64,000 nucleotides of DNA from Escherichia coli (GTDB lineage Bacteria > Pseudomonadota > Gammaproteobacteria > Enterobacterales > Enterobacteriaceae), in assembly GCF_009931435.1 (NCBI RefSeq), contig NZ_CP043414.1; one strand, 5' to 3'. A model generated the notes under the pieces. It was not told the DNA's origin, made no database searches, and worked only from the letters and a program-made list of their open reading frames with translations. A program made the position numbers and the translations under genes. Positions 32,417 through 62,454 of this stretch are shown piece by piece (position 1 is the first letter of the stretch; each line of letters starts with the position of its first letter).

Positions 32417-32962
<546 letters not shown>

Positions 32963-43341: not shown

Positions 43342-43791
43342 ATGAAGAAAGCAACACTTGTGATTGGCGTTATTGGCGCGGACTGCCATGCAGTAGGCAA
43401 TAAAGTTCTGGACCGCGTTTTTAGCAACCATGACTTCAGAGTCATTAATCTGGGCGTAATGGTCAGCCAGGACGAATATATTGATGCTGCCATTGAAACT
43501 GGCGCTGACGCGATTGTCGTCTCCTCTATCTATGGGCATGGCGATATCGATTGTCTGGGCATGCGCGAACGCTGCATCGAGCGTGGGCTGGGTAACATCC
43601 TGCTCTATGTGGGCGGTAACCTGGTGGTCGGAAAACATGACTTCGCTGACGTGGAAACCAAGTTCAAAGAGATGGGATTTGATCGCGTCTTTTCCCCAAG
43701 TCATGACTTAGAAGATGTTTGTCAGCTGATGGCCCACGATATCAACCAACGTCATGACGTTGATACTCGCATTCTTGAAGAGGCAATCTGA
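43342..43791 (+). CDS. glutamate mutase sigma subunit (B12-binding subunit)
   Basis: ORF 43279-43791; start placed at ATG 43342 after AAAGGA; [18 protein letters not shown] resembles the clostridial MutS/GlmS cobalamin-binding motif. Confidence 0.88.
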
Positions 43792-45179
43792 TGCAAATCG
43801 TCTCTGTCGATATTGGATCGACGTGGACCAAAGCAGCCCTCTTCACCCGGGAGGGGGACGCGTTAACGTTGGTTAACCACGTTCTGACCCCAACCACCAC
43901 CCATCATCTGGCGAAGGGGTTTTTCTCCAGCCTGGACCAGGTGTTAAACGTAGATGATGCCCTCCCCCTGTTAAACAGTGGTGAGGTTGCATTGAAGTAT
44001 TCCTCCTCTGCCAAAGGTGGGCTGGCGGTTGCCGCAATGGGAATAGTGCCTTCTATCACTCTGGAAACCGCGAAAGTAACCGCTCACTCTGCGGGTGCTA
44101 AAATTGCGCAATATTACGCCTACAAGCTGAACCGCCGTGATATCCAGGCACTGGAAGAAACGCAGCCCGATATTCTCTTGTTCACCGGCGGCACCGACGG
44201 CGGAGAAGAAAGCTACGGACTGAATAACGCCCGTGTGCTGGCAGAATCCAAACTCGACTGCGCCATTATTTATGCCGGAAACCGGGATATTCAGGACAAG
44301 GTGCAGGAGATCCTCGGGCATAAAGACCTGACCATCGTCGACAACGTTCTGCCCGATCTTGACCATCCGAACCCTTTAGCTGCACGCCAGGCTATCTGCG
44401 ACATATTCCTTAAACGCATCGTTAAAGGGAAAGGGCTGGATGTCATTGTTGATAAAACAGGCGAAGAACCAATGCCGACACCATGGACGGTCTTTGAACT
44501 GGTTAAGGCAATCAGTAACGTCGATCACAGCTGGAAAGAGTTCATGCTGATCGACATGGGCGGCGCAACCACCGATGTCTATTCCGCCTGTGCCAACACG
44601 CTCTCGCCCGACACTGTTTTACATGGCGTACCGGAACCCTTCGTAAAACGGACGGTGGAAGGCGATCTGGGAATGCGCGTCTCGGCAATGGTGGTTGGTG
44701 AAAGTGCGAAAGAGTTAGTCAGTGTGAATTTTGCTCAGCAACCCGCACAGTTGGACGCTTTTTATCATTACCTCCGTCATCTAGTCGCTCATCCCGACTA
44801 CTTACCCGCGAATGCAGATGAAAAATATTTCGATACCGTCCTGGCCGGACTGTGTGTGGGTTATGCCACCGAAAGACATGCGGGCACCAAAAAAGAGGTC
44901 TGCACCTGCGTCGGCAATGTCGATTTACAGATGGGACGTGACCTGACAACCGTGCGTAAAGTCGTGGGTTCCGGCGGATGGCTCTCGCGTGCCAGTCAGT
45001 TCGATATGCATCACTGGTTGAAATACCGCGAGTTAAACGACGACGGTAAACGCATTCTCTTACCGACCGAATTTGAATATTACCGCGATTCCCGGGGGCT
45101 ATTACCACTGCTGGCAAACGTCGCCAGAGTCGATCCGCTGGCCGCCGCGCGCACCAGTATTCAATGCTTAACCCTATAA
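43791..45179 (+). CDS. glutamate mutase accessory protein MutL/GlmL-like
   Basis: 462 aa ORF starting [18 protein letters not shown] (ASKHA-like ATPase N-terminus); 1-nt overlap with upstream gene. Confidence 0.85.
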   Translation: MQIVSVDIGSTWTKAALFTREGDALTLVNHVLTPTTTHHLAKGFFSSLDQVLNVDDALPLLNSGEVALKYSSSAKGGLAVAAMGIVPSITLETAKVTAHSAGAKIAQYYAYKLNRRDIQALEETQPDILLFTGGTDGGEESYGLNNARVLAESKLDCAIIYAGNRDIQDKVQEILGHKDLTIVDNVLPDLDHPNPLAARQAICDIFLKRIVKGKGLDVIVDKTGEEPMPTPWTVFELVKAISNVDHSWKEFMLIDMGGATTDVYSACANTLSPDTVLHGVPEPFVKRTVEGDLGMRVSAMVVGESAKELVSVNFAQQPAQLDAFYHYLRHLVAHPDYLPANADEKYFDTVLAGLCVGYATERHAGTKKEVCTCVGNVDLQMGRDLTTVRKVVGSGGWLSRASQFDMHHWLKYRELNDDGKRILLPTEFEYYRDSRGLLPLLANVARVDPLAAARTSIQCLTL

Positions 45180-45197: not shown

Positions 45198-46643
45198 ATG
45201 GAACTTCGAAATAAGAAATTAACCCATGACGAATTCATGACCGAGCGGCAACAGGTATTGAAAACCTGGGAAACCGGCAAGGATGTTGAAAACTTTGAAG
45301 ATGGCGTTAAATACCAACAAACCATTCCTGAGCATAAACGCTTCTCTCTTGCCCTGCTGAAAGCAGACAAGGAAGGTAAAACCCTTAGCCAACCGCGCGC
45401 AGGCGTGGCGCTGATGGACGAACACATCGAACTACTGAAAACACTACAAGAAGAGTGCGATCTGCTGCCGAGCACTATCGATGCATATACCCGTCTGAAT
45501 CGGTACGAAGAAGCTGCTGTAGGGATTAAAAAATCCATCGAAGCCGGAACCTCTAAACTGAACGGTTTACCGGTAGTTAACCACGGCGTCGCAGCTTGCC
45601 GTCGCCTCACCGAAACTCTGCAAAAACCGCTACAGATCCGCCACGGCACGCCAGATGCGCGTCTGCTGGCTGAAATCTCGATGGCCAGCGGCTTTACCAG
45701 TTATGAAGGCGGCGGCATTTCCTACAATATTCCGTATGCCAAGCGCGTAACGCTGGAAAAATCGATCCGCGACTGGCAGTACTGCGATCGTTTAATGGGG
45801 ATGTACGAAGAACACGGGATCCGCATCAACCGCGAACCGTTTGGCCCACTAACGGGTACGCTGATCCCGCCGTTTATCTCGCACTCTATCGCAATAATCG
45901 AAGGCTTGCTGGCACTGGAACAGGGTGTGAAGTCTATCACCGTTGGTTATGGTCAGGTCGGTAGCCTGACGCAGGATGTTGCGGCGATCCAGTCTCTGCG
46001 GGAACTTGCACACGAATATTTTCAGAGCTATGGCTATACCGACTACGAATTAAGTACCGTGTTTCACCAGTGGATGGGAGGCTTTCCGGAGGACGAATCG
46101 AAAGCGTTCGCCATTATCTCCTGGGGTGCTGCAGTCGCGGGGATGTCTGGTGCTACCAAAGTCATCACCAAAAGTCCGCACGAAGCCTGGGGCATCCCGA
46201 CTGCTGCTGCCAACATTCAGGGGCTAAAAGCCTCCCGCCAGATGCTCAACATGGTCAACGAGCAGAAATTCCCGCCGTGCCCGGCGGTTGAACTAGAAAT
46301 TGAACTGATTAAGAGCGAGGTTCGCGCTGTACTGAACAAAGTGTTCGAACTGGGTAATGGTGATATTGCGCGCGGTACGGTGCTGGCATTTGAAGCGGGC
46401 GTACTGGATGTGCCGTTTGCACCAGCCGCCTGCAACGCGGGCAAAATTCTTCCGGTCCGTGACAACACCGGCGCGATACGCGTACTGGAAGCCGGAGCCG
46501 TTCCATTGCCAAAAGATATTCTCGACCTCCACCACGATTACGTTGCGGAACGCGCGCGCTTTGAAGGACGCCAACCGACATTCCAGATGGTTGTAGATGA
46601 CATCAATGCTGTATCCCACAGTAAATTAATAGGAAGACCATAA
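45198..46643 (+). CDS. glutamate mutase epsilon (catalytic) subunit
   Basis: 481 aa ORF, N-terminus MELRNKKLTHDEFMTERQQVLKTW resembles clostridial GlmE/MutE. Confidence 0.88.
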   Translation: MELRNKKLTHDEFMTERQQVLKTWETGKDVENFEDGVKYQQTIPEHKRFSLALLKADKEGKTLSQPRAGVALMDEHIELLKTLQEECDLLPSTIDAYTRLNRYEEAAVGIKKSIEAGTSKLNGLPVVNHGVAACRRLTETLQKPLQIRHGTPDARLLAEISMASGFTSYEGGGISYNIPYAKRVTLEKSIRDWQYCDRLMGMYEEHGIRINREPFGPLTGTLIPPFISHSIAIIEGLLALEQGVKSITVGYGQVGSLTQDVAAIQSLRELAHEYFQSYGYTDYELSTVFHQWMGGFPEDESKAFAIISWGAAVAGMSGATKVITKSPHEAWGIPTAAANIQGLKASRQMLNMVNEQKFPPCPAVELEIELIKSEVRAVLNKVFELGNGDIARGTVLAFEAGVLDVPFAPAACNAGKILPVRDNTGAIRVLEAGAVPLPKDILDLHHDYVAERARFEGRQPTFQMVVDDINAVSHSKLIGRP

Positions 46644-47884
46644 TGAAAATAAAACAGGCCCTTTTTACCGCTGGCTACTCCTCATTCTATTTCGATGATC
46701 AGCAGGCGATAAAAAACGGAGCGGGTCACGACGGCTTTTTCTACACCGGAGAGCCGGTAACACAGGGGTTTAACGCCGTACGTCAGGCCGGGGAGTGCGT
46801 TTCGGTTCAGTTGATTCTGGAAAACGGTGCGGTCGCCGTAGGTGACTGTGCTGCCGTACAGTATTCCGGGGCAGGCGGTCGCGATCCACTGTTCCTCGCA
46901 GAGCACTTTATTCCGTTCCTCAACGACCATATCAAGCCATTACTGGTAGGCCGCGATGTGGATGCTTTCCTGCCGAATGCCCGTTTCTTCGACAAATTGC
47001 GTATTGACGGCAACTTGCTGCATACCGCCGTACGTTACGGATTATCACAGGCGCTGCTTGATGCTACCGCGCTGGCAACCGGCCGTCTGAAAACTGAAGT
47101 GGTCTGTGATGAATGGCAGTTGCCACGCGTGGCGGAATCCATTCCATTATTTGGTCAGAGCGGCGACGATCGATATATCGCCGTCGATAAGATGATCCTT
47201 AAGGGCATCGACGTGCTGCCCCATGCGCTGATTAATAACGTCGAAGAGAAACTGGGCTTTAAAGGTGAAAAACTGCGCGAATATGTCCGCTGGTTGTCAG
47301 ATCGCATTCTGAGCAAGCGCACCAGCGCACGCTACCACCCTACCCTGCACATCGATGTATACGGCACTATCGGTCTGATCTTCGATATGGATCCGCTTCG
47401 CTGTGCGCAATACATCGCCAGTCTGGAAAAAGAGGCGCAAGGCCTGCCGCTCTACATTGAGGGGCCGGTCGATGCCGGTAACAAGCCCGATCAAATCCGC
47501 CTGCTGACCGCGATTACCAAAGAGCTGACGCGCCTCGGTTCCGGCGTGAAAATCGTGGCCGATGAATGGTGTAACACCTACCAGGATATTGTTGATTTCA
47601 CTGATGCCGCCAGTTGCCACATGGTGCAAATCAAAACCCCGGATCTGGGCAGTATTCACAACATCGTCGATGCAGTTCTTTATTGCAACAGCCACAGCAT
47701 GGAAGCGTACCAGGGCGGCACCTGCAATGAAACTGATGTCAGTGCCCGCACCTGTGTCCACGTCGCCCTTGCTGCTCGCCCCATGCGTATGCTGGTAAAA
47801 CCAGGGATGGGCTTTGACGAAGGCCTCGATATCGTCTTCAACGAAATGAATCGTACTATCGCGCTGTTGCAGGCTAAGGATTAA
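46643..47884 (+). CDS. 3-methylaspartate ammonia-lyase
   Basis: 413 aa ORF, N-terminus MKIKQALFTAGYSSFYFDDQQAIKNGAGHDGFFYTGEPVTQGF is a close match to remembered methylaspartase (enolase superfamily). Confidence 0.88.
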   Translation: MKIKQALFTAGYSSFYFDDQQAIKNGAGHDGFFYTGEPVTQGFNAVRQAGECVSVQLILENGAVAVGDCAAVQYSGAGGRDPLFLAEHFIPFLNDHIKPLLVGRDVDAFLPNARFFDKLRIDGNLLHTAVRYGLSQALLDATALATGRLKTEVVCDEWQLPRVAESIPLFGQSGDDRYIAVDKMILKGIDVLPHALINNVEEKLGFKGEKLREYVRWLSDRILSKRTSARYHPTLHIDVYGTIGLIFDMDPLRCAQYIASLEKEAQGLPLYIEGPVDAGNKPDQIRLLTAITKELTRLGSGVKIVADEWCNTYQDIVDFTDAASCHMVQIKTPDLGSIHNIVDAVLYCNSHSMEAYQGGTCNETDVSARTCVHVALAARPMRMLVKPGMGFDEGLDIVFNEMNRTIALLQAKD

Positions 47885-47887: not shown

Positions 47888-49258
47888 ATGGCTCGTTCTT
47901 TTAAAGTCTTATCGCCAACGGCAATCCTCGGGTATGGATTCCCGGAAGAGAGCTTCCGCAAAGCGATGGCAGAATCGCCCGATCTGATCGCCGTTGATGC
48001 AGGCTCTTCCGATCCTGGCCCCCACTACCTCGGGGCGGGCAAACCGTTTACCGATCGCGCAGGGGTCAAGCGCGATCTGCGCTATATGATCACCGCAGGC
48101 GTGCAAAATAATATACCGGTGGTGATCGGAACGGCCGGCGGTTCTGGTGCCGCTCCACACCTGGAGTGGTGCCGAGAAATAATTCATGAGATTGCCCGGG
48201 AAGAGCACCTCGCGTTCTCGATGGCGCTGATCCCGGCAGACGTTGACAAAGCCATCGTCCACCAGGCGCTGGATAACGGCAAAATCACAGCGCTGGATTT
48301 TGTCCCGCCGTTAACCCACGACGCGATTGACGAAAGTACGTATATCGTCGCGCAAATGGGCATCGAACCCTTCCAGCAGGCGCTGAAAGAAGGCGCGCAA
48401 GTGGTGCTGGGCGGGCGCGCTTACGACCCGGCCTGCTTTGCTGCGCTACCGATCATGCAAGGCTTTGATGAAGGTCTGGCGCTGCATTGTGGGAAAATCC
48501 TTGAATGCGCGGCAATCGCCGCAACGCCCGGCTCAGGCTCTGACTGTGCGATGGGCATCATTGATGACAACGGCTTTACGCTGAAGACATTTAATCCGAA
48601 GCGTAAATTTACCGAAACGTCAGCGGCTGCACACACACTGTATGAGAAATCCGATCCCTACTTCCTGCCAGGACCTGGCGGCGTGTTGAACCTGAAAGGC
48701 TGCACATTTAAAGCGGTCAATGACGGCGAAGTGTACGTCAGCGGTTCTAAGCATGAAGAAACGCCGTATGCCCTGAAACTGGAAGGTGCGCGGCGGGTGG
48801 GCTTCCGCTGTCTGACCATCGCAGGAACGCGCGACCCGATCATGATCGCCGGGATCGATAAAATCATCGATGAAGTCAAAACCAGCGTTTCGCGTAACCT
48901 GTCGCTCGACGATGACAGCATTCGCATCAATTTCCACCTGTACGGCAAAAACGGGGTGATGGGCGACCATGAACCGATGCAAACTGCCGGGCATGAGCTG
49001 GGGATTGTCCTTGATGTAGTTGCACCGACCCAGGATATTGCCAATAGCGTTTGCTCGCTGGTGCGCTCTACCATGCTGCACTACGGCTATGAAAACCGCA
49101 TCGCTACCGCAGGCAACCTGGCGTTCCCGTTCTCCCCTTCTGATATCCAGGGCGGGCCGGTATACGAATTTTCCATATATCACCTGATTGAAGCCAACGA
49201 CGCTCTGCGTTTTGATTTCCATATTGAACAGGTGACGCCAGAAGGAGTTCAGGCATGA
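47888..49258 (+). CDS. conserved protein of unknown function, tentatively DUF1446 / AtuA-like
   Basis: 456 aa ORF 3 nt after the lyase gene; family assignment from memory of an LIAVDAGSSDPGP-type N-terminal pattern. Confidence 0.7.
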   Translation: MARSFKVLSPTAILGYGFPEESFRKAMAESPDLIAVDAGSSDPGPHYLGAGKPFTDRAGVKRDLRYMITAGVQNNIPVVIGTAGGSGAAPHLEWCREIIHEIAREEHLAFSMALIPADVDKAIVHQALDNGKITALDFVPPLTHDAIDESTYIVAQMGIEPFQQALKEGAQVVLGGRAYDPACFAALPIMQGFDEGLALHCGKILECAAIAATPGSGSDCAMGIIDDNGFTLKTFNPKRKFTETSAAAHTLYEKSDPYFLPGPGGVLNLKGCTFKAVNDGEVYVSGSKHEETPYALKLEGARRVGFRCLTIAGTRDPIMIAGIDKIIDEVKTSVSRNLSLDDDSIRINFHLYGKNGVMGDHEPMQTAGHELGIVLDVVAPTQDIANSVCSLVRSTMLHYGYENRIATAGNLAFPFSPSDIQGGPVYEFSIYHLIEANDALRFDFHIEQVTPEGVQA

Positions 49259-49572
49259 AACAGTCAATTGTCTCACTGGCGCAAGTCATTCGTTCGAAAA
49301 ATGCCGGACCTTACGAACTGGTTTTAGATATTTTATTTAAAACGAAAGAAAACTATGAGCGAGTAAAATCATCAGGGCAATTAACCCCAGAACTGATTGC
49401 GCGCTTATATCATGTTGAACCTGACTTTATTCATCGTATTGTCTGGTTTGATCCTTCTAACGCAGTAAAAATTGTCATGCCACGAGATATTATCTCCGGG
49501 AATGTAGGTGACAATGATGTCTATGGCGCACAGCAACATGCACCTTTATTAAATATGAGTTTCGATTTGTAA
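49255..49572 (+). CDS. small conserved protein, tentatively DUF4387-like partner
   Basis: 105 aa ORF overlapping the preceding gene by 4 nt (ATGA coupling). Confidence 0.7.
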   Translation: MKQSIVSLAQVIRSKNAGPYELVLDILFKTKENYERVKSSGQLTPELIARLYHVEPDFIHRIVWFDPSNAVKIVMPRDIISGNVGDNDVYGAQQHAPLLNMSFDL

Positions 49573-49732: not shown

Positions 49733-51013
49733 ATGAAGAAAATAAGTTTAACCACGATGATTCTTTTGGCGCTGGTACTTGGAATGATTATCGGCGTAGT
49801 GCTCAATAACACTGCTTCACCGGAAACAGCAAAACTCTATGCGCAAGAAATATCGATATTCACGACGATTTTCTTACGACTGATAAAAATGATTATCGCT
49901 CCGTTAGTGGTCTCTACCCTGGTGGTAGGTATTGCTAAAATGGGCGATGCCAAAGCCCTTGGTCGTATTTTTTCTAAAACACTCTTTTTATTTATTTGCG
50001 CCTCATTGCTGTCAATTGCCTTAGGCTTGATAACGGTAAATTTCTTCATGCCAGGCACAGGAATTAATTTTGTTGCACACGGTGCCGAAACCACCGGAGT
50101 GGTCGCGTCAGAACCCTTTACACTAAAAGTATTTATTTCGCATGCTTTCCCCACCAGCATTGTCGATGCCATGGCGCACAATGAAATTTTGCAAATCGTG
50201 GTGTTCTCAATTTTCCTCGGCTGTAGCCTGACGGCGATTGGTGAGAAAGGCAGCGCCATCGTTCACGCCTTAGATTCGCTGGCACATGCCATGTTAAAGC
50301 TCACTGGCTACGTCATGCTCTTCGCTCCCCTGACCGTATTCGCCGCTATTTCAGCATTGATTGCTGAACGAGGACTGGCAGTTATGGTGAGCGCCGGGAT
50401 CTTTATGGGTGAATTTTATTTCACCATGTTATTACTTTGGGTGCTGCTTATCGGTCTGGCCATCGTTTATGTCGGCCCCTGCATCAGACGCCTGACCCGC
50501 GCCCTTTCAGAACCCGCCCTGCTGGCATTTACCACATCCAGTTCTGAAGCTGCTTTTCCGGGAACGCTTGAAAAACTGGAGCAATTTGGCGTTTCCCCCA
50601 AAATTGCCAGCTTTGTCTTACCCATTGGCTACTCATTTAATCTCGTTGGATCAATGGCCTACTGCTCCTTCGCCACAGTTTTCATCGCCCAGGCCTGCAA
50701 TATCCATTTATCCATCGGTGAGCAAATCACCATGCTGTTGATCCTGATGTTGACCTCGAAAGGAATGGCTGGCGTACCACGCGCCTCAATGGTGGTTATC
50801 GCCGCCACGCTCAACCAGTTCAATATTCCGGAAGCGGGGCTGATCTTGCTGATGGGCGTTGATCCGTTCCTTGATATGGGGCGTTCCGCGACAAACGTCA
50901 TGAGCAACGCAATGGGCGCTGCGATGGTGAGTCGGTGGGAAGGCGAACATTTCGGCGAGGGCTGTCGGGGTAAAGCATTAAAACCCAATGAATCGAACGT
51001 TGCTCTGCCCTGA
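49733..51013 (+). CDS. dicarboxylate/amino acid:cation symporter (DAACS, GltP/DctA family)
   Basis: ORF 49712-51013; start placed at ATG 49733 after GGAGG; polytopic membrane protein. Confidence 0.85.
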   Translation: MKKISLTTMILLALVLGMIIGVVLNNTASPETAKLYAQEISIFTTIFLRLIKMIIAPLVVSTLVVGIAKMGDAKALGRIFSKTLFLFICASLLSIALGLITVNFFMPGTGINFVAHGAETTGVVASEPFTLKVFISHAFPTSIVDAMAHNEILQIVVFSIFLGCSLTAIGEKGSAIVHALDSLAHAMLKLTGYVMLFAPLTVFAAISALIAERGLAVMVSAGIFMGEFYFTMLLLWVLLIGLAIVYVGPCIRRLTRALSEPALLAFTTSSSEAAFPGTLEKLEQFGVSPKIASFVLPIGYSFNLVGSMAYCSFATVFIAQACNIHLSIGEQITMLLILMLTSKGMAGVPRASMVVIAATLNQFNIPEAGLILLMGVDPFLDMGRSATNVMSNAMGAAMVSRWEGEHFGEGCRGKALKPNESNVALP

Positions 51014-51120
51014 GGGGGATCTTAAGCAATCAGAAGCCAATGACTACGCATTTTTATAAGCCGGATCATGAAGTTAGACGGCAATTAAGTAACACTAACG
51101 TTTAAGGTGAAAAGTGAAAT

Positions 51121-52773
51121 ATGTCCAAACCATTTATCTGGCAAGAACCGTTTCTACAAAATAAAGACGGTACAGAATATACATTAATTAGCGATCAACA
51201 TATTACAGTAACGGAATTAGACGGCGAAGAAGTAATAAAAATCGCTCCTGAAGCATTAACGCTGCTTGCCCGGCAGGCATTTTATGAAGCCTCTTTTTTC
51301 TTACGTTCCGCTCATTTGCAACAGGTCGCCAGCATTCTTAACGATCCGCAGGCCAGCAGTAATGATAAATACGTTGCGTTGCAGTTATTACGTAATGCTG
51401 AAGTCTCAGCAAAAGGGGTATTACCCAACTGTCAGGATACCGGCACCGCAACTATTGTTGCCAGTAAAGGGCAACAGATATGGACGGGAGGTAACGACGC
51501 TGAAGCCTTAAGCAAAGGCATTTACAGTACTTTCCAGGAAAATAATCTGCGCTTTTCACAAAATGCGCCGCTGGATATGTATACCGAAGTCAATACGCAA
51601 ACCAATCTTCCGGCGCAGATTGATATCAGCGCTGTCGCTGGTAATGAGTACCATTTTCTCTGTGTTAATAAAGGGGGCGGCTCCGCCAATAAAGCCGCAC
51701 TTTATCAGGAAACCAAATCCTTATTGCAACCAGAAAAACTGACCGCATTTTTAATCGACAAAATGAAATCGTTGGGCACGGCCGCCTGCCCGCCCTACCA
51801 CATCGCCTTTGTCGTCGGAGGGCTTTCAGCCGATCAAACCTTAAAAGTTGCCAAGCTGGCCTCTACGAAATATTACGACAATTTGCCCACCAGCGGAAAC
51901 GAGCAGGGACAAGCATTCCGTGATATTGAGCTGGAAAAAGCGTTGCTCGAGGCCAGTCAGCAATTTGGTATTGGTGCGCAATTTGGGGGTAAATATTTCG
52001 CTCATGATATTCGCGTCATTCGTCTGCCGCGTCACGGTGGCTCTTGCCCGATAGCTATGGCGCTCTCCTGTTCTGCCGATCGCAATATCAAAGCAAAAAT
52101 TAACAAGCATGGTATCTGGCTGGAAAAACTCGAACACAATCCGGGGCAATATATTCCAGCCTCACTGCGGGAAGAAAATCACGCGCAACATGTACAGCTG
52201 GATCTAAACCGTCCGTTGCGTGACGTGATGCAGGATCTCGCCAGATTACCGGTAGGTACCCGCGTGTCGTTAAGTGGTCCCATCGTAGTGGCGCGCGATA
52301 TCGCCCACGCAAAAATAAAAGCGCGGCTGGATAGCGGCGAATCGATGCCGGATTACCTGAAGCATCATATTGTCTATTACGCTGGCCCGGCGAAAACACC
52401 GGAGAACATGGCCTGCGGTTCACTGGGTCCAACCACGGGCGGTCGAATGGACGGTTATGTCGAAACCTTCCAGGCGGCTGGCGGCAGTCTGGTAATGTTA
52501 TCGAAAGGTAACCGCAGCCAGCAGGTCACCGATGCCTGTCACAAACATGCAGGCTTCAATCTGGGAAGTATTGGCGGTGCAGCTGCGTTACTGGCGCAAG
52601 AATATGTCAAAAGTCTGCGTTGCCTGGAATACCCGGAGCTGGGTATGGAGGCGGTGTGGATGATGGAAGTGGAAAATCTGCCCGCATTCATCCTGGTTGA
52701 TGATAAAGGCAATAATTTCTTTAGCCAGTTTGAGCAGCAACACCGCTGCGCCAGTTGCCCTGCGGGACATTAA
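51121..52773 (+). CDS. fumD: class I (Fe-S) fumarate hydratase family protein, mesaconase candidate
   Basis: 550 aa ORF, FumA/FumB length and fold; symbol from memory of the O157:H7 cluster. Confidence 0.8.
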
Positions 52774-52782
52774 GGAAAATGA

Positions 52783-53385
52783 ATGGAAGCGCGAATTTCA
52801 ACTGAACGGCATGTGCAGCGCCAACAGAAATTGAAGGAACAGGTCGATACGCGCGTCGCGGCGGCGATAGAGAAAAAAGGGATCTTGATTGTTTTCACCG
52901 GCAACGGCAAAGGGAAATCCACTGCCGCGTTTGGTACTGTGACGCGCGCGGTGGGTCATGGCAAAACGGTGGGGGTTGCGCAGTACATCAAGGGGCAATG
53001 GGACAACGGCGAATACAACCTTCTCCAGCCGCTGGGGGTTGAGTTTCATATTATGGGAACCGGTTTTACCTGGGAGACTCAGAACCGGCAAGCGGATATC
53101 GACGCGGCGAAAGAGGTCTGGTCGGAAAGCAAACGGATGCTGGCTGACAAGCGTTACGACTTAGTGGTGCTTGATGAGCTGACCTATATGCTGGCTTACC
53201 ATTATCTGGACACCGAAGAAGTGATCACTTCTCTGCAAAACCGCCCGGCACAACAAAGTGTCATTGTCACCGGACGCAGTTGCCACAGTCAGATATTAAA
53301 AATGGCGGATACGGTCAGCGAAATCCGCCCCGTCAAACATGCTTTTGATAACGGCATTCAGGCGCAGCCGGGTATCGACTGGTAA
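52783..53385 (+). CDS. cob(I)alamin adenosyltransferase, CobA/BtuR family paralog
   Basis: 200 aa ORF with P-loop IVFTGNGKGKSTAAFG; close to remembered K-12 BtuR. Confidence 0.85.
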   Translation: MEARISTERHVQRQQKLKEQVDTRVAAAIEKKGILIVFTGNGKGKSTAAFGTVTRAVGHGKTVGVAQYIKGQWDNGEYNLLQPLGVEFHIMGTGFTWETQNRQADIDAAKEVWSESKRMLADKRYDLVVLDELTYMLAYHYLDTEEVITSLQNRPAQQSVIVTGRSCHSQILKMADTVSEIRPVKHAFDNGIQAQPGIDW

Positions 53386-53418
53386 TAACTGCGCCTGGCA
53401 TCCAGCCAGGCGCAGGTT

Positions 53419-54324
53419 TTACATCTCCTGCGGTACGACCGATTTCGCCAGCAACCATTCACGAAATTGCTGCAAGTGCGGCGAGTCAGACTTCTCTTCC
53501 TGCCACGTCATAATAAAACGATTACCGGTACGAATAGGCACATCACAGGGAATCACCATATCGCCACTATCCAAATCATGTTGAATAGCGAACCGTGGTA
53601 ACAGCGCCACGCCGAGATTAGAGCGCACGGCGGCAATCAGCATTGAAAGCAAATCGAAACGTGGTCCGTTATTGACCAGCGGACTGCTAACGCCAGATAA
53701 AGCAAACCACTCTTCCCAGCCAGTAATACGGGTGCTTTGATGCAGAAGTGGTAACTCAGTAAGCAGTTCTGCCACTGACAGTTTTTGATCGGACATTGCA
53801 AGCAAACTGCCGCTGCATACCGGCAAAATCTCCTCTTCAAAGAGATATTCTACTTCCGCCCAGGGCGCGCAAAAATTTTCGCGCATAATGACAGCATCGT
53901 ACTCCCGATTAAGAAAATCGCCGTTATTAGCTAAAGAATGAATATTAACAATAATATCGGGATGTAACTTTGTGAATTCATGTAAATTTGGGATTAACCA
54001 GTGGGTACTAAACGTAGGATTAACGGCAAGTTCAATAACCTGAACCGTAGGCTGCCAGGTCATAATCGTATTGGTATCGCGCTCCAATTTATTTAATGTT
54101 TCTTTTACTATCCCCAGGTAATACTTCCCTGCATCATTAAGAAAAATGCGTTTTTTAGAGTGTGAAAATAACGGAGTATGTAAAAATTCCTCCAACGCAC
54201 TTACTTGTCTGAATACTGCACTTTGGGTTAACGCTAACTCCTCTGCCGCTCTGGTATAACTTTCATGACGTGCGACGACCTCAAAAGTCACCAGCAGCTC
54301 CGTTTTAGGTATTTTTCCTCGCAT
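53419..54324 (-). CDS. LysR-family transcriptional regulator
   Basis: 301 aa ORF, N-terminal HTH (ESYTRAAEELALTQSAVFRQVSALEEFL). Confidence 0.85.
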   Translation of the reverse strand: MRGKIPKTELLVTFEVVARHESYTRAAEELALTQSAVFRQVSALEEFLHTPLFSHSKKRIFLNDAGKYYLGIVKETLNKLERDTNTIMTWQPTVQVIELAVNPTFSTHWLIPNLHEFTKLHPDIIVNIHSLANNGDFLNREYDAVIMRENFCAPWAEVEYLFEEEILPVCSGSLLAMSDQKLSVAELLTELPLLHQSTRITGWEEWFALSGVSSPLVNNGPRFDLLSMLIAAVRSNLGVALLPRFAIQHDLDSGDMVIPCDVPIRTGNRFIMTWQEEKSDSPHLQQFREWLLAKSVVPQEM

Positions 54325-54594: not shown

Positions 54595-56265
54595 TTATTT
54601 TTGATTTATAGCATATCCCTCTAAGAATTTTTGCGATGCTTCAATATCCGGGGTAAAGACCCGATCCTGACTGACAAATGGCACGACTTGACGATAAGCG
54701 GTGAACATCGCTTTTGTTGATTTGCCTAACGCCAGCTGTGGATCGGCTTGCAAGCGCAAATCAATCGCCTGGGCAGAATGCATCAGTTCAATGCCATAAA
54801 TGACATTCAAATTATCAACAACCTGTTTCAATCTTCTCGCCGCGTGGTCGTTATTGGCACCCGTATCTTCAATGCCTCCGGCTACCGGTTGAATATCGAA
54901 AGAAACCGGGTTAGCGAGATCGACATTTTCCGCATGCAGCGCAACAAACGGGATATGTAATGAACCGAAGCCATGACCTTTATTACCTGCTGCCGACAGG
55001 AAGCGTGACAAACCGGTAAAGTGATCATCTTCAAGATGCAGCGAGCGGCGCATACTGTTATGTGAAACATGCACTAACGCCACGGTCAGACGCTGGGTGG
55101 CAAGCGCAACCGGTAACGATTCGAAATTCGCCGTCGGGAAGATCCCACCGCTGATTGCCCCATCTTTAACAAAATATTGCGCGACCTGACTGGAGTCCTG
55201 ATACGCTTTGTCTGCATTCAGCACGGTTGCCGGGTTGTCATCGGAACTGTTGATCTGCACGGTAATGGTATCTTCAGCATCGCGCAACGCGCGCATTGCC
55301 TCAGAAATGGTATACACCGTCGTTCTGAACGATAACGGATCCTGCAATGCACGTTTGTCATCCTTATGCCATAAATAAGAACCACTTAACGCATCGCGAA
55401 TCTCTTTAGCGGAATCAGCCAACTGCGGGAAAGGACGCACGGCGATCGACTGCGGCAGTACCGGCGCGACATTGCCATTCAACGCTTCGAGGCTCATGGC
55501 GAAAACCACCGGACTGACATTCAGCACCTGGCGTGCCGACCGTACCGCTTCAATTGCATATGCTGTTCCGACACTGTTGTTCGACAAAATCGCCAGCATA
55601 TCTTTACCCTGCGGGACCAGTGGTTTAAGCCCCACTTTCACCAGCGCATCGCCACCACTCATTTCCACGCCATTAACCCGCGCTTTCCACTCGCCCATCA
55701 TCACCAGACCAACGTGTGAAGCGAGCATAATATCCGCTGCGCCGATACTTCCCCGCGCCGGAATTAACGGCGTAACGCCTCGATTAATAAACTCGGCATA
55801 CAACTCGGCAATATAAGGCTGCGCGCCGGTTTGCCCATGCAACATAGTATTTAAACGTAACACCATTGAGAGACGGGCAAGATAATCCGGCAACATCGGA
55901 CCGACGCCCGCAGAATGGGCGCGCAGCGCGGCAGCATTAAATTTTTTCGATGCGTCAATCACCTCAGGCGTTAAATTTCCTTTGGCATCAAATATGGGCT
56001 GATCTTTATTTAGCCCCACGCCCACGGTTAAGCCATAAACAGGCGTACCTGAATGCGCGGCAGTCATCACCAGATCATAACTTTTTTCCATGCGCTCCAT
56101 GGCGTTCGACGCGATTTTGACGCCGTTATCACCTAATGCAATTGACCAGGCCTGGTCAATAGAGAGATGTTCGCCATCCAGCGTAATGGTTGATTTTGCC
56201 ATCGCGATGGAGCAAACGCTCCAGAGCACAACGGTGACAGTGACTCTGCGTATCAATCCTTTCAT
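54595..56265 (-). CDS. aromatic amino acid lyase (HAL/PAL) fold protein lacking the MIO triad, signal-peptide-like N-terminus
   Basis: 556 aa ORF; conserved GSVGASGDLAPLAH block reads GSIGAADIMLASH (codons checked at 55729-55752); N-terminus MKGLIRRVTVTVVLWSVCSIAMA; AAGGA 6 nt upstream of ATG 56265. Confidence 0.8.
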   Translation of the reverse strand: MKGLIRRVTVTVVLWSVCSIAMAKSTITLDGEHLSIDQAWSIALGDNGVKIASNAMERMEKSYDLVMTAAHSGTPVYGLTVGVGLNKDQPIFDAKGNLTPEVIDASKKFNAAALRAHSAGVGPMLPDYLARLSMVLRLNTMLHGQTGAQPYIAELYAEFINRGVTPLIPARGSIGAADIMLASHVGLVMMGEWKARVNGVEMSGGDALVKVGLKPLVPQGKDMLAILSNNSVGTAYAIEAVRSARQVLNVSPVVFAMSLEALNGNVAPVLPQSIAVRPFPQLADSAKEIRDALSGSYLWHKDDKRALQDPLSFRTTVYTISEAMRALRDAEDTITVQINSSDDNPATVLNADKAYQDSSQVAQYFVKDGAISGGIFPTANFESLPVALATQRLTVALVHVSHNSMRRSLHLEDDHFTGLSRFLSAAGNKGHGFGSLHIPFVALHAENVDLANPVSFDIQPVAGGIEDTGANNDHAARRLKQVVDNLNVIYGIELMHSAQAIDLRLQADPQLALGKSTKAMFTAYRQVVPFVSQDRVFTPDIEASQKFLEGYAINQK

Positions 56266-56315
56266 TGTGTTTCCTTATTTTGATGAGTTTAACAACGGAT
56301 TACTGCAACAACCTC

Positions 56316-57266
56316 TTAATTTGTTTTATCTGTTTTTCCTCGACGGACAATAGTGGCAGCCAGGCGAGCGGCAACCTTCGCGGTCAAATTATCGCGGTCC
56401 AAATCTGGGTTCAGTTCGGCAATATCCGCAGCAATCAACTTCTCGCTACCGGCAATTAAATTCACAATAGCCTCAGCAATATTTAATGGCACGCCTAACG
56501 GCGAAGGCGCAGAAACGCCAGGAGCCTGATAACCCGGTAAGACATCAAGACAAATCGTTAAATAAATGGCGTCACACGCCTGAATATCTGCCGAGAGCGC
56601 ATTAACAATCTCATGCAAACCACGTTCAAATTGCAGAGATTCATCCAGCCAATAACGCACACCAGGACAATCAGCACGATCAAATAACGCCTGAGTGTTG
56701 GCATAACGGCTTATTCCCAGCACGCGATAATGAAACGGTTTGCCATGCTGCGCATTCCACTCCTGCATCTGCCGAAACGGCGTACCCGAATTGGCCTTTT
56801 CCGCCATCCGCAAATCAAAATGCGCGTCAAGGTTGACTATCAGCAGTCGCCGAATATCCGGACGCGACTGCATAATCCCCTGAAATGTTCCCCATGCCAC
56901 TTCATGACCGCCGCCCAGAACGACCGGCAAACTGCCGCGCGCAATTGCCATAGCCACGTTTTCCGCCAGACGGTTTTGTGCGGGTTCCAGCGCGTGGTCT
57001 TCGCTTTGCACGTCACCCATGTCAAAAATAGCGCCTTCATGGAGCACTGGCATATTGCCCAACATGCTGCGTAATGCGCCCGGTCCGCCTGCTGCGCCCG
57101 CTCGCCCACCGTTACGTTGCACCCCGTCATCGACGGCAAAACCAATCAGCGTACTGCCTCCATGACTTTGTTCGGTAAACGGTTTTACATGCTGATGCCA
57201 GCGGGTGCTGACGCCAGTTTCCTGCGAGTCAACACGTCCACTCCATGCCATAAATGTTTGCTTCAT
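56316..57266 (-). CDS. hutG: formimidoylglutamase
   Basis: ORF 56316-57305; start placed at ATG 57264-57266 overlapping hutI stop (TAATG); arginase-fold motifs GGGHE and DAHFD. Confidence 0.85.
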   Translation of the reverse strand: MKQTFMAWSGRVDSQETGVSTRWHQHVKPFTEQSHGGSTLIGFAVDDGVQRNGGRAGAAGGPGALRSMLGNMPVLHEGAIFDMGDVQSEDHALEPAQNRLAENVAMAIARGSLPVVLGGGHEVAWGTFQGIMQSRPDIRRLLIVNLDAHFDLRMAEKANSGTPFRQMQEWNAQHGKPFHYRVLGISRYANTQALFDRADCPGVRYWLDESLQFERGLHEIVNALSADIQACDAIYLTICLDVLPGYQAPGVSAPSPLGVPLNIAEAIVNLIAGSEKLIAADIAELNPDLDRDNLTAKVAARLAATIVRRGKTDKTN

Positions 57267-58477
57267 TACCAACTCCTTTTTCCGCCGACAATCAGCCCCA
57301 GACAAGGCTGATGTCCAAACCAGTAAGCCAGCTCACGCGGATGATTAAGATCCCAAACAGCCATATCCGCCCGTAGTCCCGGCGCAAGTTCACCCCGATC
57401 AACAAGTCCAAGCGCTTTTGCCGCATGACGTGTAACGCCCTGAACGGCTTCCAGCGGGGTCATGTGAAACAGCGTACAGGCCATATTGATCATCAACTGC
57501 AATGACATGTTGGGAGACGTTCCGGGGTTATGATCCGTGGAGATGGCAATCGGCACACCTGCGGCCCGCAGAGCGACAATCGGCGGCAGATGGGTTTCGC
57601 GCAGGAAGTAATAAGCACCGGGAAGCAAAACCGCCACTGTTCCAGCCGCTTTCATGGCGGCGATCCCCGACTCGCTCAGGTACTCCAGATGATCGCAGGA
57701 GAGTGCAGAAAACGCCGCTGCCAGCGCCGCGCCTTGCTGGTCAGAAAGCTGTTCGGCATGCAGTTTTACAGGTAATCCATAGCTTTGCGCTTTACTGAAA
57801 ACGCGCCGTACCTGCTCTGGAGTAAAGGCGATGTTTTCACAAAAAGCATCAACTGCATCAATCAGCCCCTGTTCATGCAACACGCACATCCAGTCGCAAA
57901 GCGCCGTAATGTAATCATCACTGCGCCCGGCAAACTCTGGCGGCAGGCTGTGCGCCCCGAGAAACGTAGACTGAATATGTAACCCGGTAGATTGCTGCAA
58001 GCGGCGGATCACGCGTAAACAACGCGCTTCATCTTCCAGCGTTAAGCCATAACCCGATTTGATTTCAAGCGTACTGACGCCTTCACGTTGCCAGTTTCGC
58101 AGTCGCTGCGCCGCCAGTTCAAACAGCTGTGTTTCGCTGGCTGCCCGCGTGGCATTAACCGTAGATAAGATCCCGCCGCCCGCTCTGGCGATATCTTCAT
58201 AAGCCACGCCTTGCAACCGCATCTCAAACTCGTTCGCCCTCTGGCCGCCATACACCAGATGTGTATGACAATCTACCAGACCGGGTGTCAGCAACTTACC
58301 CTGTAGATCGTGTTCTTCTGTAATATCAGCCGTCAGTTCACGGGGGATCTGCGTGGCCTTCCCAAGCCAGACAATCGAGTCACCGCGGCTGATTAATGCA
58401 CCGTTTTCAATCACCCCCCAATCATTAGCCGAAAGCGTCGTCAGGGTGGTATTTCGCCAGAGCGTAAATGCACTCAT
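57266..58477 (-). CDS. hutI: imidazolonepropionase
   Basis: ORF 57266-58513; start placed at ATG 58477 (MSAFTLWRNTTL) overlapping hutD stop (ATGA); amidohydrolase DCHTHL motif. Confidence 0.85.
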   Translation of the reverse strand: MSAFTLWRNTTLTTLSANDWGVIENGALISRGDSIVWLGKATQIPRELTADITEEHDLQGKLLTPGLVDCHTHLVYGGQRANEFEMRLQGVAYEDIARAGGGILSTVNATRAASETQLFELAAQRLRNWQREGVSTLEIKSGYGLTLEDEARCLRVIRRLQQSTGLHIQSTFLGAHSLPPEFAGRSDDYITALCDWMCVLHEQGLIDAVDAFCENIAFTPEQVRRVFSKAQSYGLPVKLHAEQLSDQQGAALAAAFSALSCDHLEYLSESGIAAMKAAGTVAVLLPGAYYFLRETHLPPIVALRAAGVPIAISTDHNPGTSPNMSLQLMINMACTLFHMTPLEAVQGVTRHAAKALGLVDRGELAPGLRADMAVWDLNHPRELAYWFGHQPCLGLIVGGKRSW

Positions 58478-59064
58478 AAGGATTTTTCCCCTCGTAGATA
58501 ATAAATCCACCAACCCGCCAGCTCGCCGACGGAGACTTTTTGCTGTGGTACGAAACGCCAGGAGTTGCCATCAGGCGCAAACCGCCATAACAACGTATTC
58601 GCCGTTACAAACACCCTGTTCTCGCCGCTTATCCACTCCCCTTCACACAGCGTGAACAGCCCCGCTTGCGCATGCGCCGGAGGGAGCCAGTCAATGACGC
58701 TTTGCACACGACGCATCCCCGCATCGCCTTCCCGCGCCATAATATTCAGATCGCGAACCCCGCCGCCCAGCAGCTGACAATCAGGCATTGCTTCTCCAGG
58801 GAAAATTAAGGCGGGATCGTGACGTTGCAGGTTGATGATCGAATCGGCAAACGTTAGCTTCACCCCTTCCCCGTCGAGGATCGCGAGGCCACGAACCACG
58901 CCAGGCCACGCTGAAAAAGGGCCATCCTGACTGACATTCGCCATACTGATGCGCAACAACCAGTTTTCATCATCGGGCCAGGCAAGCAGCTGTCGGGTAA
59001 ACCCCCCGCCGTTGCGCCACGGTTGCAGCGGCTTATCCATTGCAGAAATCAGCATCGGTTCCAT
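58474..59064 (-). CDS. hutD: HutD-family protein
   Basis: 196 aa ORF with WRNGGGFTRQL, matching the HutD N-terminal signature. Confidence 0.8.
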   Translation of the reverse strand: MEPMLISAMDKPLQPWRNGGGFTRQLLAWPDDENWLLRISMANVSQDGPFSAWPGVVRGLAILDGEGVKLTFADSIINLQRHDPALIFPGEAMPDCQLLGGGVRDLNIMAREGDAGMRRVQSVIDWLPPAHAQAGLFTLCEGEWISGENRVFVTANTLLWRFAPDGNSWRFVPQQKVSVGELAGWWIYYLRGEKSL

Positions 59065-59065
59065 A

Positions 59066-60475
59066 TTAAGACTCGGGATAAATCGTATAAGCAGGAACGC
59101 AGGTGGTGCGTTTGGCCCACGGGTAATAGATAACGGCGGTAATTAACAAGCCGACAATCCAGGAGATATCCGCCCCATCCATCAGGACAGAAATGGGTCC
59201 CTGATACAGTTTTTGATTCAGGAAGGGGATCTGCACCAACACGCCTACGCCATAGCACGTCAAAGCGGTTTTGTTATACGCGCCATAACGCCCTTCCGGG
59301 GTATAAAGCGCTGGAATATCGGTTTTACCTTGTGAGATGAAGTAATAATCGATGAGATTAATGGCACTCCACGGAACAAATACCGTCAACAGTAGCAGAA
59401 CGAAGTTTTTGAAATTATTCAAAAAATCTGCGCTTGCCGCCAGCGCGACGACCATCGACAACAGCACGAACCCTACAACGTAGGCAGCACGAACACGCTG
59501 TGAAACCTGACTGCGATCATTAAAGGCGCTGACGGTCGCCAGAATCGACATAAAGCCACCGTAGGCATTCAAACAGTTCACCGTCAGTTTGCCGCAAACA
59601 ATCACCATATAAATCAGAATGGCGAAGGTGGGTCCGGCTAACTCGCCCATAAAACCAACCTGATCCTTCAGGAAGTTAGCACCACAGGCCGCAACAAGTA
59701 CGCCAAACGTCATGGCACATTGCGCACCAAGCGTGGTTCCCAGAAAGGTGGCAAAGAAGATTGATTTTGCTGGCGTATCAGAGGGTAAATAGCGGGAATA
59801 ATCAGAGGCGTAAGGGGCAAACGTTAATTGCCATCCGGCAGAGAGAGCAATCGTTAATAAAAAGACCGACAGACTAAATGGCTTTTGACCAAATGCCGCA
59901 GCCACATCGTAGTGACCGCTAAGTTGAGTGGCCAGGTAAATAAACCCCAGAATACTTAATATCCCTGCAACACGGCCAACGACGTGAATTAGTTTATAAC
60001 CGACCAATGCGATCATCGCGGTCAGCATGCCGAAAATAATAATTCCGGTCGATGCCGATTCGAAACCAAATATCCGGTTAATCGCCTGACCGGATAATAC
60101 TGTACCCGTCGCGGCAAATCCAAGGTACATAATAATCACCATCAGTAACGGTAGCGCCGCTCCTTTAACGCCAAAGCGGATACGACTGGAGATCATCTGG
60201 GGTAATCCCAGCTTTGCCCCCTGCGACGAGTGCAATGCCATTACTGCACCACCAATAATATTACCGATTAATAAACCAATTATTGCTGACATAGCTTCGG
60301 AGCCAAAAATAATCGCTAACGCGCCGTCCACCACTGCGGTAATTTGTAAGTTAGCACTTAGCCATAAAGTAAACTGACTAGATGGCGCGCCGTGGCGAGC
60401 AGACTCAGGAACGGCGTTAATCGTATTTGATTCTAATACTGGCTTTTTACTGCGGATAGGGCTGCTTGATTCCAT
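59066..60475 (-). CDS. NCS1-family permease (CodB-like)
   Basis: ORF 59066-60520 starts on TTG; start placed at ATG 60475 with AGGAG 8 nt upstream; CodB-like RFGVKGAALP segment. Confidence 0.8.
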   Translation of the reverse strand: MESSSPIRSKKPVLESNTINAVPESARHGAPSSQFTLWLSANLQITAVVDGALAIIFGSEAMSAIIGLLIGNIIGGAVMALHSSQGAKLGLPQMISSRIRFGVKGAALPLLMVIIMYLGFAATGTVLSGQAINRIFGFESASTGIIIFGMLTAMIALVGYKLIHVVGRVAGILSILGFIYLATQLSGHYDVAAAFGQKPFSLSVFLLTIALSAGWQLTFAPYASDYSRYLPSDTPAKSIFFATFLGTTLGAQCAMTFGVLVAACGANFLKDQVGFMGELAGPTFAILIYMVIVCGKLTVNCLNAYGGFMSILATVSAFNDRSQVSQRVRAAYVVGFVLLSMVVALAASADFLNNFKNFVLLLLTVFVPWSAINLIDYYFISQGKTDIPALYTPEGRYGAYNKTALTCYGVGVLVQIPFLNQKLYQGPISVLMDGADISWIVGLLITAVIYYPWAKRTTCVPAYTIYPES

Positions 60476-60638
60476 GAAAAAGTCTCCTGCAAAATGAGAG
60501 GTCATTTTTTGAAACAGCAATAGAGGGTCGGGAGATATTTTTCTCGACGATGTAAAAATATTTTTTGATAATTATTGTTATACAGGCGAATTATTCTCCG
60601 CCTGTATTAGCGCAAATATTAAATGACGGCGTTAATAT

Positions 60639-62336
60639 TTAGCGAATCATCGGTAATTTCAGACCATAGTTTTTGGCACATTCAATTGCCGCTTCATAAC
60701 CCGCATCCGCATGACGCATAACCCCGGACGCACAGTCATTCACCAGCACACGCGCCAGACGTTTTTCGGCTTCTTCGCTACCATCGGCAACAATAACCAT
60801 CCCGGCGTGTTGTGAATACCCCATCCCGACGCCGCCGCCATGATGCAGGGATACCCACGTTGCTCCCCCTGCAGTGTTGAGCAAACCGTTGAGCAACGGC
60901 CAGTCAGAAACCGCATCACTGCCATCAAGCATGCTTTCGGTTTCGCGGTTCGGGCTGGCGACAGAACCGGTATCAAGATGATCGCGCCCAATCACAATCG
61001 GTGCTTTTAGTTCACCGTTGCGCACCATTTCGTTGAATGCCAGCCCCGCCAGGTGACGCTCACCAAGCCCCAGCCAGCAAATACGTGAAGGAAGTCCCTG
61101 GAAGGCAATGCGCTCGCGCGCCATATCCAGCCAGCGATGCGTCAGTACGTTATTGGGGAACAACTCTTTAATTTTGGCATCGGTTTTATAGATATCTTCC
61201 GGGTCGCCAGACAGCGCCACCCAACGGAATGGACCTTTGCCTTCACAAAACATTGGACGAATATAAGCCGGAACAAAGCCCGGGAAATCAAAGGCATTTT
61301 GCAGACCTTCGTTGAAGGCCACCTGGCGGATGTTGTTGCCATAATCGACAACCGGGATCCCCATCGCCTGGAAGTCCAGCATCCCCTGAACATGTGCGAC
61401 GCAGCTCTGTGCCGCTTCTTTTTGCAATCTGGCGTGTTGCTGTGGATCCTGCTGTGCAGCGCGCCATTGTTCTACGCTCCAGCCCATCGGTAGGTAGCCA
61501 TAAACCAGATCGTGAGCGGAAGTCTGGTCGGTTACCAGATCCGGCTTAATCGCCCCCTGATGCGCACGTTTCACCAGCTCAGGAACAATTTCCGCCGCAT
61601 TGCCCAACAGCGCGATTGAAACAGCGTCTTTGCGCTCGGTATGGTATTTAATCAGCGCCAGTGCATCATCAAGATCTTTCGCTTGTTTATCGACATAACG
61701 GGTACGCAGTCGGAAGTCGATGCTACTTTGCTGGCACTCGATATTTAATGAGCACGCCCCCGCCAGAGTCGCCGCCAGCGGTTGTGCGCCACCCATACCA
61801 CCGAGCCCCGCGGTCAGGATCCATTTTCCACTCAGCGAATTGTTGTAGTGCTGACGACCCGCTTCAACAAAGGTTTCGAACGTTCCCTGCACAATGCCCT
61901 GACTACCGATGTAGATCCACGAGCCAGCGGTCATCTGGCCGTACATGAACAGACCTTTACGATCCAGTTCATTGAAATGATCCCAGTTGGCCCATTGCGG
62001 TACCAGGTTAGAGTTGGCAATCAATACGCGCGGCGCATCGGTATGCGTTTTAAACACGCCTACGGGTTTACCGGACTGAACCAGCAGTGACTCATCAGCT
62101 TCCAGATTTTTCAGTGATTCAAGGATCTTGTCAAAACACTCCCAGTTACGTGCCGCACGACCAATACCACCATACACCACCAGATGCTGTGGATTTTCGG
62201 CAACGTCGGGATCAAGGTTGTTCTGCAACATCCGGTAGGCTGCTTCAATTTGCCAGTTTTTGCAGTGCAGCTGCGTACCGTGTGGCGCATGGATTACACG
62301 GCTGGTATCAATACGCGGGTCTGAAGGCTTACTCAT
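60639..62336 (-). CDS. hutU: urocanate hydratase
   Basis: ORF 60639-62435; start placed at ATG 62336 ([12 protein letters not shown]) with AGGAG upstream, 565 aa; long identity runs with remembered HutU ([33 protein letters not shown]). Confidence 0.88.
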
Positions 62337-62402
62337 GAATCTTCTCCTGTTACTTGATAAAATTAAACGCTGTAATCGGTCAGAAAAAACGAACGAATGA
62401 AT

Positions 62403-62419
62403 ATAGAAACGGTTTCTAT
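62403..62419. promoter_or_regulatory. candidate operator palindrome upstream of hutU
   Basis: atagaaac-g-gtttctat, 8-1-8 perfect dyad about 70 bp upstream of hutU start. Confidence 0.3.
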
Positions 62420-62454
62420 AATTCCCGTTTATCATTTTGTATTATTAATTCATT

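Follow-up and report, generated by a model that had tools for sequence, protein, structure and literature searches.

In the pdu and eut systems, the genes for an adenosylcobalamin-dependent enzyme and its reactivase-like partner are accompanied by one for an adenosyltransferase, in genomes that also encode the housekeeping adenosyltransferase CobA. The pdu cluster pairs PduO with PduGH, and the eut cluster pairs EutT with EutA. In addition, the PduO-type adenosyltransferase has a chaperone function for methylmalonyl-CoA mutase. Escherichia coli is unable to synthesise the corrin ring. CobA and PduO have been described as partly redundant (PMC4923194), and glutamate mutase is described as requiring both supplied B12 and constant reactivation (review PMC7100375). 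The housekeeping enzyme of Salmonella enterica and E. coli, CobA/BtuR (CobO; EC 2.5.1.17; PDB 1G5R, 1G5T, 1G64, 4HUT), is a protein of 196 amino acids encoded between yciK and rluB.

The closest described locus is the glutamate mutase cluster of E. coli O157:H7, in which Fig 5 of Kronen and Berg 2015 (PMC4682846) labels one gene 'CobA, cob(I)alamin adenosyltransferase'. According to the same paper, 26.5% of E. coli strains carry the cluster, as do 14.8% of Enterobacteriaceae, and the FumD orthologue of O157:H7 is biochemically a mesaconase/fumarase. CobA is only labelled there (PMC4682846); its paralogy, its separate clade, the selection acting on it and the Arg165 change presented below are not discussed. 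Our search of the later literature on the cluster, on DUF1446/DUF4387, or on FumD in connection with cobalamin retrieved nothing past Kronen and Berg 2015.

The gene studied here, referred to as island cobA, was found in a stretch of 64,000 nucleotides of E. coli DNA (the window). It is the same gene as the O157:H7 cobA: the two copies are told apart by 6 of 603 bases and, in the protein, by 2 of 200 residues. The clusters of both strains share the order glmS-glmL-glmE-mal-DUF1446-DUF4387-gltP-fumD-cobA facing lysR. A hut (histidine utilisation) cluster comes next in the window, whereas O157:H7 has no hut genes at that place. The island protein belongs to the same family as the housekeeping CobA/BtuR, with which it shares 67-68% identity without gaps, and it reaches 200 amino acids by virtue of four extra N-terminal residues; its gene, however, is located after fumD and falls into a separate clade. 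As in the pdu and eut systems, a B12 enzyme, a reactivase-like protein and an adenosyltransferase are brought together in the glm cluster. On the other hand, the PduO and EutT families show no homology to island CobA, for which only PF02572 and PF12557 were matched, and the glm cluster has neither the PduS-like reductase nor the microcompartment genes of the pdu type. Island cobA and its placement are already known and, since both are found in the literature and in RefSeq, where the gene is labelled cobO, cob(I)yrinic acid a,c-diamide adenosyltransferase, the discovery weight of the locus is small. The paralogy, the separate clade, the selection and the Arg165 change constitute added detail and not a new kind of thing.

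The island cobA gene and its cluster

Island cobA extends from 52783 to 53385 (+) and encodes 200 amino acids, assigned to the CobA-type ATP:co(I)rrinoid adenosyltransferases on the basis of family and structure matches. The gene starts with ATG, and its translation, as read from the window, includes GILIVFTGNGKGKSTAAFGT. An identical 603-bp coding sequence with the same start is annotated by RefSeq in E. coli strains carrying copies 99.0-99.8% identical at the nucleotide level. Rereading of the sequence showed that the coordinates and the P-loop string given in a preliminary description of the locus were both correct. That description had located the gene 9 bp downstream of a fumarase-like gene, and this spacing is borne out by the TAA stop of the upstream class I fumarase ORF at 52771-52773, which leaves a 9-bp gap (52774-52782) before cobA. 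A Shine-Dalgarno-like AGGA motif, read directly at 52773-52776 (+), overlaps the fumD stop in part and is separated from the cobA ATG by six bases.

On the 3′ side of cobA, a hairpin was identified at 53389-53415, with 11 pairs of which 9 are GC, a free energy of -28.1 kcal/mol (z -6.18 vs shuffles) and a GUUUU stretch after it. This structure is a likely transcription terminator between cobA and the convergent lysR gene (53419-54324, -; Pfam PF00126 and PF03466), which encodes a LysR-type regulator and ends at 53419. Island cobA, with the hairpin and the LysR gene after it, is the last + strand gene of the cluster; the preliminary description had likewise called it the last operon gene. Neighbour mapping located lysR downstream of cobA also in the 13 syntenic loci from other species (L003-L015) and in the Morganella morganii locus (L058) described below.

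The remaining genes of the cluster precede cobA on the same strand. The first of them, glmS (43342-43791, +), was located by mapping the RefSeq coding sequences of loci L001 and L083, and encodes the B12-binding small subunit of glutamate (methylaspartate) mutase, whose residues 14-19 (DCHAVG) correspond to the base-off/His-on cobalamin-binding motif DxHxxG. Next come glmL/mutL (43791-45179, +; Pfam PF13941 MutL, 464 bits), encoding a mutase accessory protein and putative reactivase named by RefSeq methylaspartate mutase accessory protein GlmL; glmE (45198-46643, +; Pfam PF06368, 713 bits), encoding the catalytic subunit of glutamate mutase; and the methylaspartate ammonia-lyase gene mal (46643-47884, +; Pfam PF07476 and PF05034). 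They are followed by genes for an AtuA/DUF1446-family protein (47888-49258, +; Pfam PF07287, 72 bits), whose position is kept in L003-L015, a DUF4387 protein (49255-49572, +; Pfam PF14330, 134 bits), and a GltP-like dicarboxylate/amino acid:cation symporter (49733-51013, +; Pfam PF00375, 343 bits; start taken from the L001 RefSeq coding sequence). The gene preceding cobA is fumD, for a class I fumarase/mesaconase (51121-52773, +; Pfam PF05681 and PF05683). GlmS, GlmE, GlmL (PF13941) and CobA are thus all encoded on one strand within 43.3-53.4 kb. In related E. coli genomes, the cluster is inserted between cydAB and sucABCD.

The genes for the AtuA/DUF1446 and DUF4387 proteins (47888-49572, +) overlap at their stop and start codons, and the pair is found inside the operon in all syntenic loci. 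Kronen and Berg left open what becomes of (S)-citramalate in these organisms (PMC4682846), which makes both proteins candidates for the missing step.

In a consensus scan for internal sigma-70 promoters or terminators that would part cobA from fumD, promoter-like sites were fewer than in shuffled sequences, and the sole strong terminator lies after cobA; such a scan says little about operon structure. The cluster contains gaps of 160 bp before gltP and 107 bp before fumD. Predicted coupling is evident from the sequence for the fumD-cobA pair only, and not for the cluster as a single transcript. No Rfam family, and hence no cobalamin riboswitch for the cluster, reached its gathering score in the 40-55 kb region of the window, and the cluster ORFs contain no Pfam domains of PduS-like corrinoid reductases or microcompartment shell proteins. 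With neither a corrinoid reductase nor a cobalamin riboswitch in the cluster, the cofactor-maintenance module is incomplete in comparison with that of pdu.

Additional features were observed in the neighbourhood. The hut cluster lies directly beyond the LysR gene (54595-62435, -, and 63094-63762, +), and contains genes for a HAL/PAL-family lyase, hutG, hutI, HutD, a cytosine/purine-type permease and hutU, and then an RtcB gene fragment. The whole hut flank was recovered in 143 of the 1133 E. coli genomes that match any part of it. Because Hut yields glutamate, the substrate of the mutase, the hut genes and the mutase operon may form one histidine-to-mesaconate route. The lyase of this cluster (54595-56265, -; 556 aa), named by RefSeq only as 'HAL/PAL/TAL family ammonia-lyase', has a signal-peptide-like N-terminus, MKGLIRRVTVTVVLWSVCSIAMAKS; a signal peptide would be unusual on a histidine ammonia-lyase. 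Two AT-rich ORFs (41273-42295 and 42375-42797, +; GC ~0.36 vs ~0.52 in the cluster) are located between cydA and glmS; they have no Pfam match, and correspond to RefSeq hypothetical proteins in related strains. Finally, Rfam identified a seven-tRNA array interleaved with RtT repeats (30296-31451, -), a CpoB/ybgF thermometer (32378-32516, -) and naRNA4 (6174-6244, -), which are ordinary features of the E. coli tol-pal/cyd neighbourhood.

Distribution, gene order and selection of the two cobA copies

The preliminary description had regarded the gene as a second copy and not as the sole btuR of its genome, and the check for the housekeeping gene upholds this view. Of the 5426 complete E. coli genomes searched by megablast with K-12 btuR, 5422 contained the yciK-linked housekeeping gene, a result that rules out a relocated single btuR. 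Island cobA was present in 1121 of the same 5426 genomes (~21%), so that at least 1117 of them carry both copies. Full-length glmE was also detected in 1121/5426 genomes; this agreement is one of equal counts (1121 each) and not of member-by-member overlap. The cobA and glmE counts match those expected for an island copy that travels with the cluster. In a distant search, two places were found in each island-bearing record among those listed, including NZ_AP027764.1, whose island copy gives a protein identical to that of the window. One of the 1122 E. coli records with island cobA is a plasmid instead of a chromosome, as is one of the glmE records.

Relatives of the gene were then sought in one genome per bacterial species, and the neighbours of the best 80 loci were mapped. 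Two types of locus emerged from this analysis. Among these best 80, the 13 loci at 80-85% identity, which belong to other Enterobacterales, all show the order glmL-glmE-mal-atuA-DUF4387-gltP-(glutaminase)-fumD-cobA facing lysR, and originate from eight Citrobacter genomes, a Raoultella MAG, Lelliottia, two Buttiauxella and Klebsiella michiganensis. The 66 loci at 65-71% identity, also within the best 80, are without exception of the yciK-btuR type; in 61 of these, wherever the available sequence extends far enough, btuR is followed by rluB. Both types occur together in ten species of this set. The window gene, which follows fumD, does not share the yciK-btuR-rluB order. The linkage to the pathway that had been suggested from the E. 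coli locus is supported by a gene order kept in 13 species of five other genera and, for its last part, in Morganella, as well as by the equal counts of cobA and glmE.

The gap between gltP and fumD measures ~1.1-1.4 kb in the Citrobacter, Raoultella, Lelliottia, Buttiauxella and Klebsiella loci (L003-L015), vs 107 bp in the window (51014-51120). In the one locus that was checked, L003, this gap (7135-8136) encodes a glutaminase (PF04960), which would add another glutamate-supplying function to the cluster.

In a neighbour-joining tree, the island copies formed one group in 100 of 100 bootstraps, and in 96 of 100 the island copies and a fumD-linked copy from Morganella morganii together stood apart from every housekeeping copy. 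The closest representative outside the enterobacterial CobA cluster was only 57% identical. The tree split and this low identity of the next outside representative point to an old paralog that is nevertheless of gammaproteobacterial lineage, with no distant import. Selection was estimated within Citrobacter, dS being saturated between genera: dN/dS values were 0.02-0.06 for island copies and 0.02-0.035 for the housekeeping copies of the same genomes. Purifying selection acts on island cobA just as strongly as on the housekeeping btuR.

The Morganella morganii locus (L058) has the order gltP-fumD-cobA, with a cobA 68% identical to the island type. Its gltP-fumD-cobA genes adjoin cobT, cobC, cobS, cobU, cbiP, cbiO, cbiQ and cbiM (6573-19627 of the locus), and the 10 kb to each side of cobA contained neither glm nor mal genes. 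The fumD-linked cobA may be the general CobA of Morganella, resembling the ancestor of the island copy. This arrangement has to be considered in connection with an alternative in which the island gene encodes an active adenosyltransferase without any special link to glutamate mutase, a passenger of a horizontally mobile cluster that was perhaps once a general CobA, and in which BtuR would suffice. In Morganella, the gene sits beside cob/cbi B12 genes, away from any glm or mal gene, and looks like a general B12-pathway gene; in addition, every catalytic residue of island CobA is as in the housekeeping enzyme, and no specialised domain was detected by Pfam. The housekeeping BtuR present in the same genomes might indeed suffice, which would leave the island copy redundant. 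A redundant gene should, however, decay or vanish in some lineages, but island cobA is kept in 13/13 syntenic loci and in as many E. coli genomes as full-length glmE, with a dN/dS as low as that of the housekeeping copy. These data lead us to consider a mere passenger unlikely, and to favour a paralog maintained together with the cluster.

Family membership and conserved residues of island CobA

The assignment to the CobA/BtuR-type adenosyltransferases, previously made by reading the sequence, holds for all three family models above their curated cutoffs: NCBIfam NF004637 (295.2 bits, cutoff 185), the cobA equivalog TIGR00708 (245.4 bits, cutoff 167.75) and Pfam PF02572 (216 bits vs a cutoff of 25.7, covering profile positions 1-172 of 172). 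Apart from PF02572, the only Pfam match was PF12557. Chain A of PDB 1g5r, the Salmonella enterica CobA (SeCobA), was aligned gap-free over residues 6-200 (E 1.7e-87, 68% identity), from which the fold of island CobA is predicted to be that of PDB 1G5R. The gene had also been called a close homolog of btuR, a statement that can now be quantified as 67% amino-acid identity, and ~68% nucleotide identity, to K-12 BtuR.

The P-loop of island CobA, GNGKGKST at residues 40-47, fits the MgATP-binding motif GxGKGK[TS]T. In SeCobA numbering, K39, K41, T43, F91, W93, E128, R161 and R9 are kept in the window copy and in 13/13 other island loci; the P-loop and F91, W93, E128, R161 and R9 are common to the housekeeping enzyme. 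The equivalents in the window copy are F95 (SeCobA F91), W97 (W93), E132 (E128), R165 (R161) and R13 (R9). F95 and W97 are located in the stretch TGFTWETQNR, and both are kept in 14/14 island and 68/68 housekeeping sequences. Their SeCobA counterparts, Phe91 and Trp93, displace the lower ligand, giving four-coordinate cob(II)alamin. An uninterrupted ORF of 200 aa is present in the window copy and in each of the 13 syntenic island loci. Among the 120 representatives of the island-type cluster, a length of 200 aa is shared by 115, the P-loop by all and the TGFTW motif by 118.

Island copies differ from the housekeeping enzyme at several positions. T42 of SeCobA is S in every island copy; S is also found in 40 of 108 representatives of the wider CobA family (clustered at 50% identity). 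Fixed island substitutions were also observed at SeCobA positions 28, 62, 70, 74, 86, 102 and 121. At the position of Arg165, all 68 housekeeping sequences and the Morganella copy have R, whereas 14/14 island loci have A, S or T (Ser169 in the window CobA), and R is found in 0/119 island-type representatives. Buan and Escalante-Semerena (J Biol Chem 2005) reportedly found Arg9 and Arg165 to matter for the docking of flavodoxin (FldA) and not for catalysis. Of this reported docking pair, the window copy retains the equivalent of Arg9 and lacks that of Arg165. The replacement of Arg165 in every island copy is a small new point.

This pattern could be taken to mean that the island copy works differently, either with an electron donor other than FldA or as a partner of GlmS and GlmL in cofactor delivery: the arginine is invariant in the housekeeping and Morganella sequences, it is absent from all 14 island loci and from the 119 island-type representatives, and it is reportedly involved in docking FldA. 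The other reported docking residue, Arg9, is retained, however, and position 165 is variable in the wider family, where R occurs in only 9 of the 108 representatives and P, E, A, Q and K are common, so that its loss is unremarkable. The variability of the position indicates that the Arg165 change marks a lineage rather than a defect, and it weakens the value of the change as a marker of altered function. An altered mode of action is, in our opinion, improbable, and the use of another electron donor by the island enzyme has a low probability.

The window copy carries a further change at codon 166 (53278-53280), which encodes Ser where SeCobA has Gly162, beside Arg161. Gly is present at this position in 119/119 island-type representatives and 81/83 enterobacterial CobA sequences, and the Ser allele is shared by the window and two other E. 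coli strains. Since CobA proteins of the wider family vary at this residue, the substitution is probably tolerated, and it was discarded as a window-specific defect. This Ser at an otherwise conserved Gly, together with weak matches to PRK07413 and PRK07414, both far under their cutoffs, is what could suggest a decaying gene or a CobA-like P-loop protein of other function. Such an interpretation is extremely improbable given the score well over the cobA equivalog cutoff, the 200-aa ORF intact in the window, in the 13 syntenic loci and in nearly all 120 listed relatives, the dN/dS of 0.02-0.06 and the family-wide variability of SeCobA position 162. A pseudogene or a P-loop protein that is not an adenosyltransferase was ruled out on the basis of the equivalog-level scores, intact ORFs and low dN/dS. 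Altogether, the sequence data suggest that island cobA probably encodes a working CobA-type adenosyltransferase, an old paralog of BtuR that moves with the enterobacterial glutamate mutase/methylaspartase/FumD cluster.

Proposed role in the glutamate mutase pathway

Judging from gene position only, island CobA most likely forms or regenerates the adenosylcobalamin used by glutamate mutase, working alongside GlmL. With a start located 9 bp after fumD, cobA would be made whenever the fumD part of the cluster is expressed, and the capacity to adenosylate imported corrinoids would rise together with the level of GlmS/GlmE apoenzyme. The 68% identity to S. enterica CobA and the conserved residues suggest the chemistry of the reaction. 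MgATP would be held by the P-loop of island CobA, and cob(II)alamin would be bound in such a way that Phe95 and Trp97 push off the lower ligand, leading to four-coordinate Co(II). A one-electron donor would then reduce Co(II) to Co(I), whose attack on C5′ of ATP would yield adenosylcobalamin and triphosphate. Damaged cofactor leaving the mutase could be re-adenosylated by island CobA, probably with the help of GlmL.

Previous data on comparable clusters have to be weighed against this role. The clostridial glutamate fermentation clusters (Fig 4 legend, PMC4682846) include no adenosyltransferase, from which it follows that glutamate mutase needs no linked adenosyltransferase. Moreover, Kronen and Berg reported that they could not induce the cluster in O157:H7 ATCC 700728, that no methylaspartase activity was detected, and that glutamate was without effect on anaerobic growth, the growth tests being each carried out with and without hydroxo-, cyano- and adenosylcobalamin (PMC4682846). 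Methylaspartase activity does occur in other enterobacteria, namely the strains of Kato and Asano to which that paper refers.

The island proteins might also form a functionally specialised subfamily, with another electron donor or with a direct hand-off of adenosylcobalamin in a GlmL-CobA-GlmS repair relay. We regard such specialisation as doubtful; if true, the relay would be the CobA-type counterpart of the PduO-type chaperone for methylmalonyl-CoA mutase. Under the preferred role in cofactor supply and repair, island cobA and glmL would be a natural cofactor-maintenance pair and, as such, a candidate for engineered mesaconate production. About one fifth of the complete E. coli genomes, O157:H7 included, carry this B12-dependent pathway, which leads from glutamate to mesaconate and citramalate. 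The presence in the cluster of its own conserved and selected adenosyltransferase suggests that in the natural habitat, most likely a gut in which corrinoids are scavenged, the pathway is limited by activation or repair of the cofactor.
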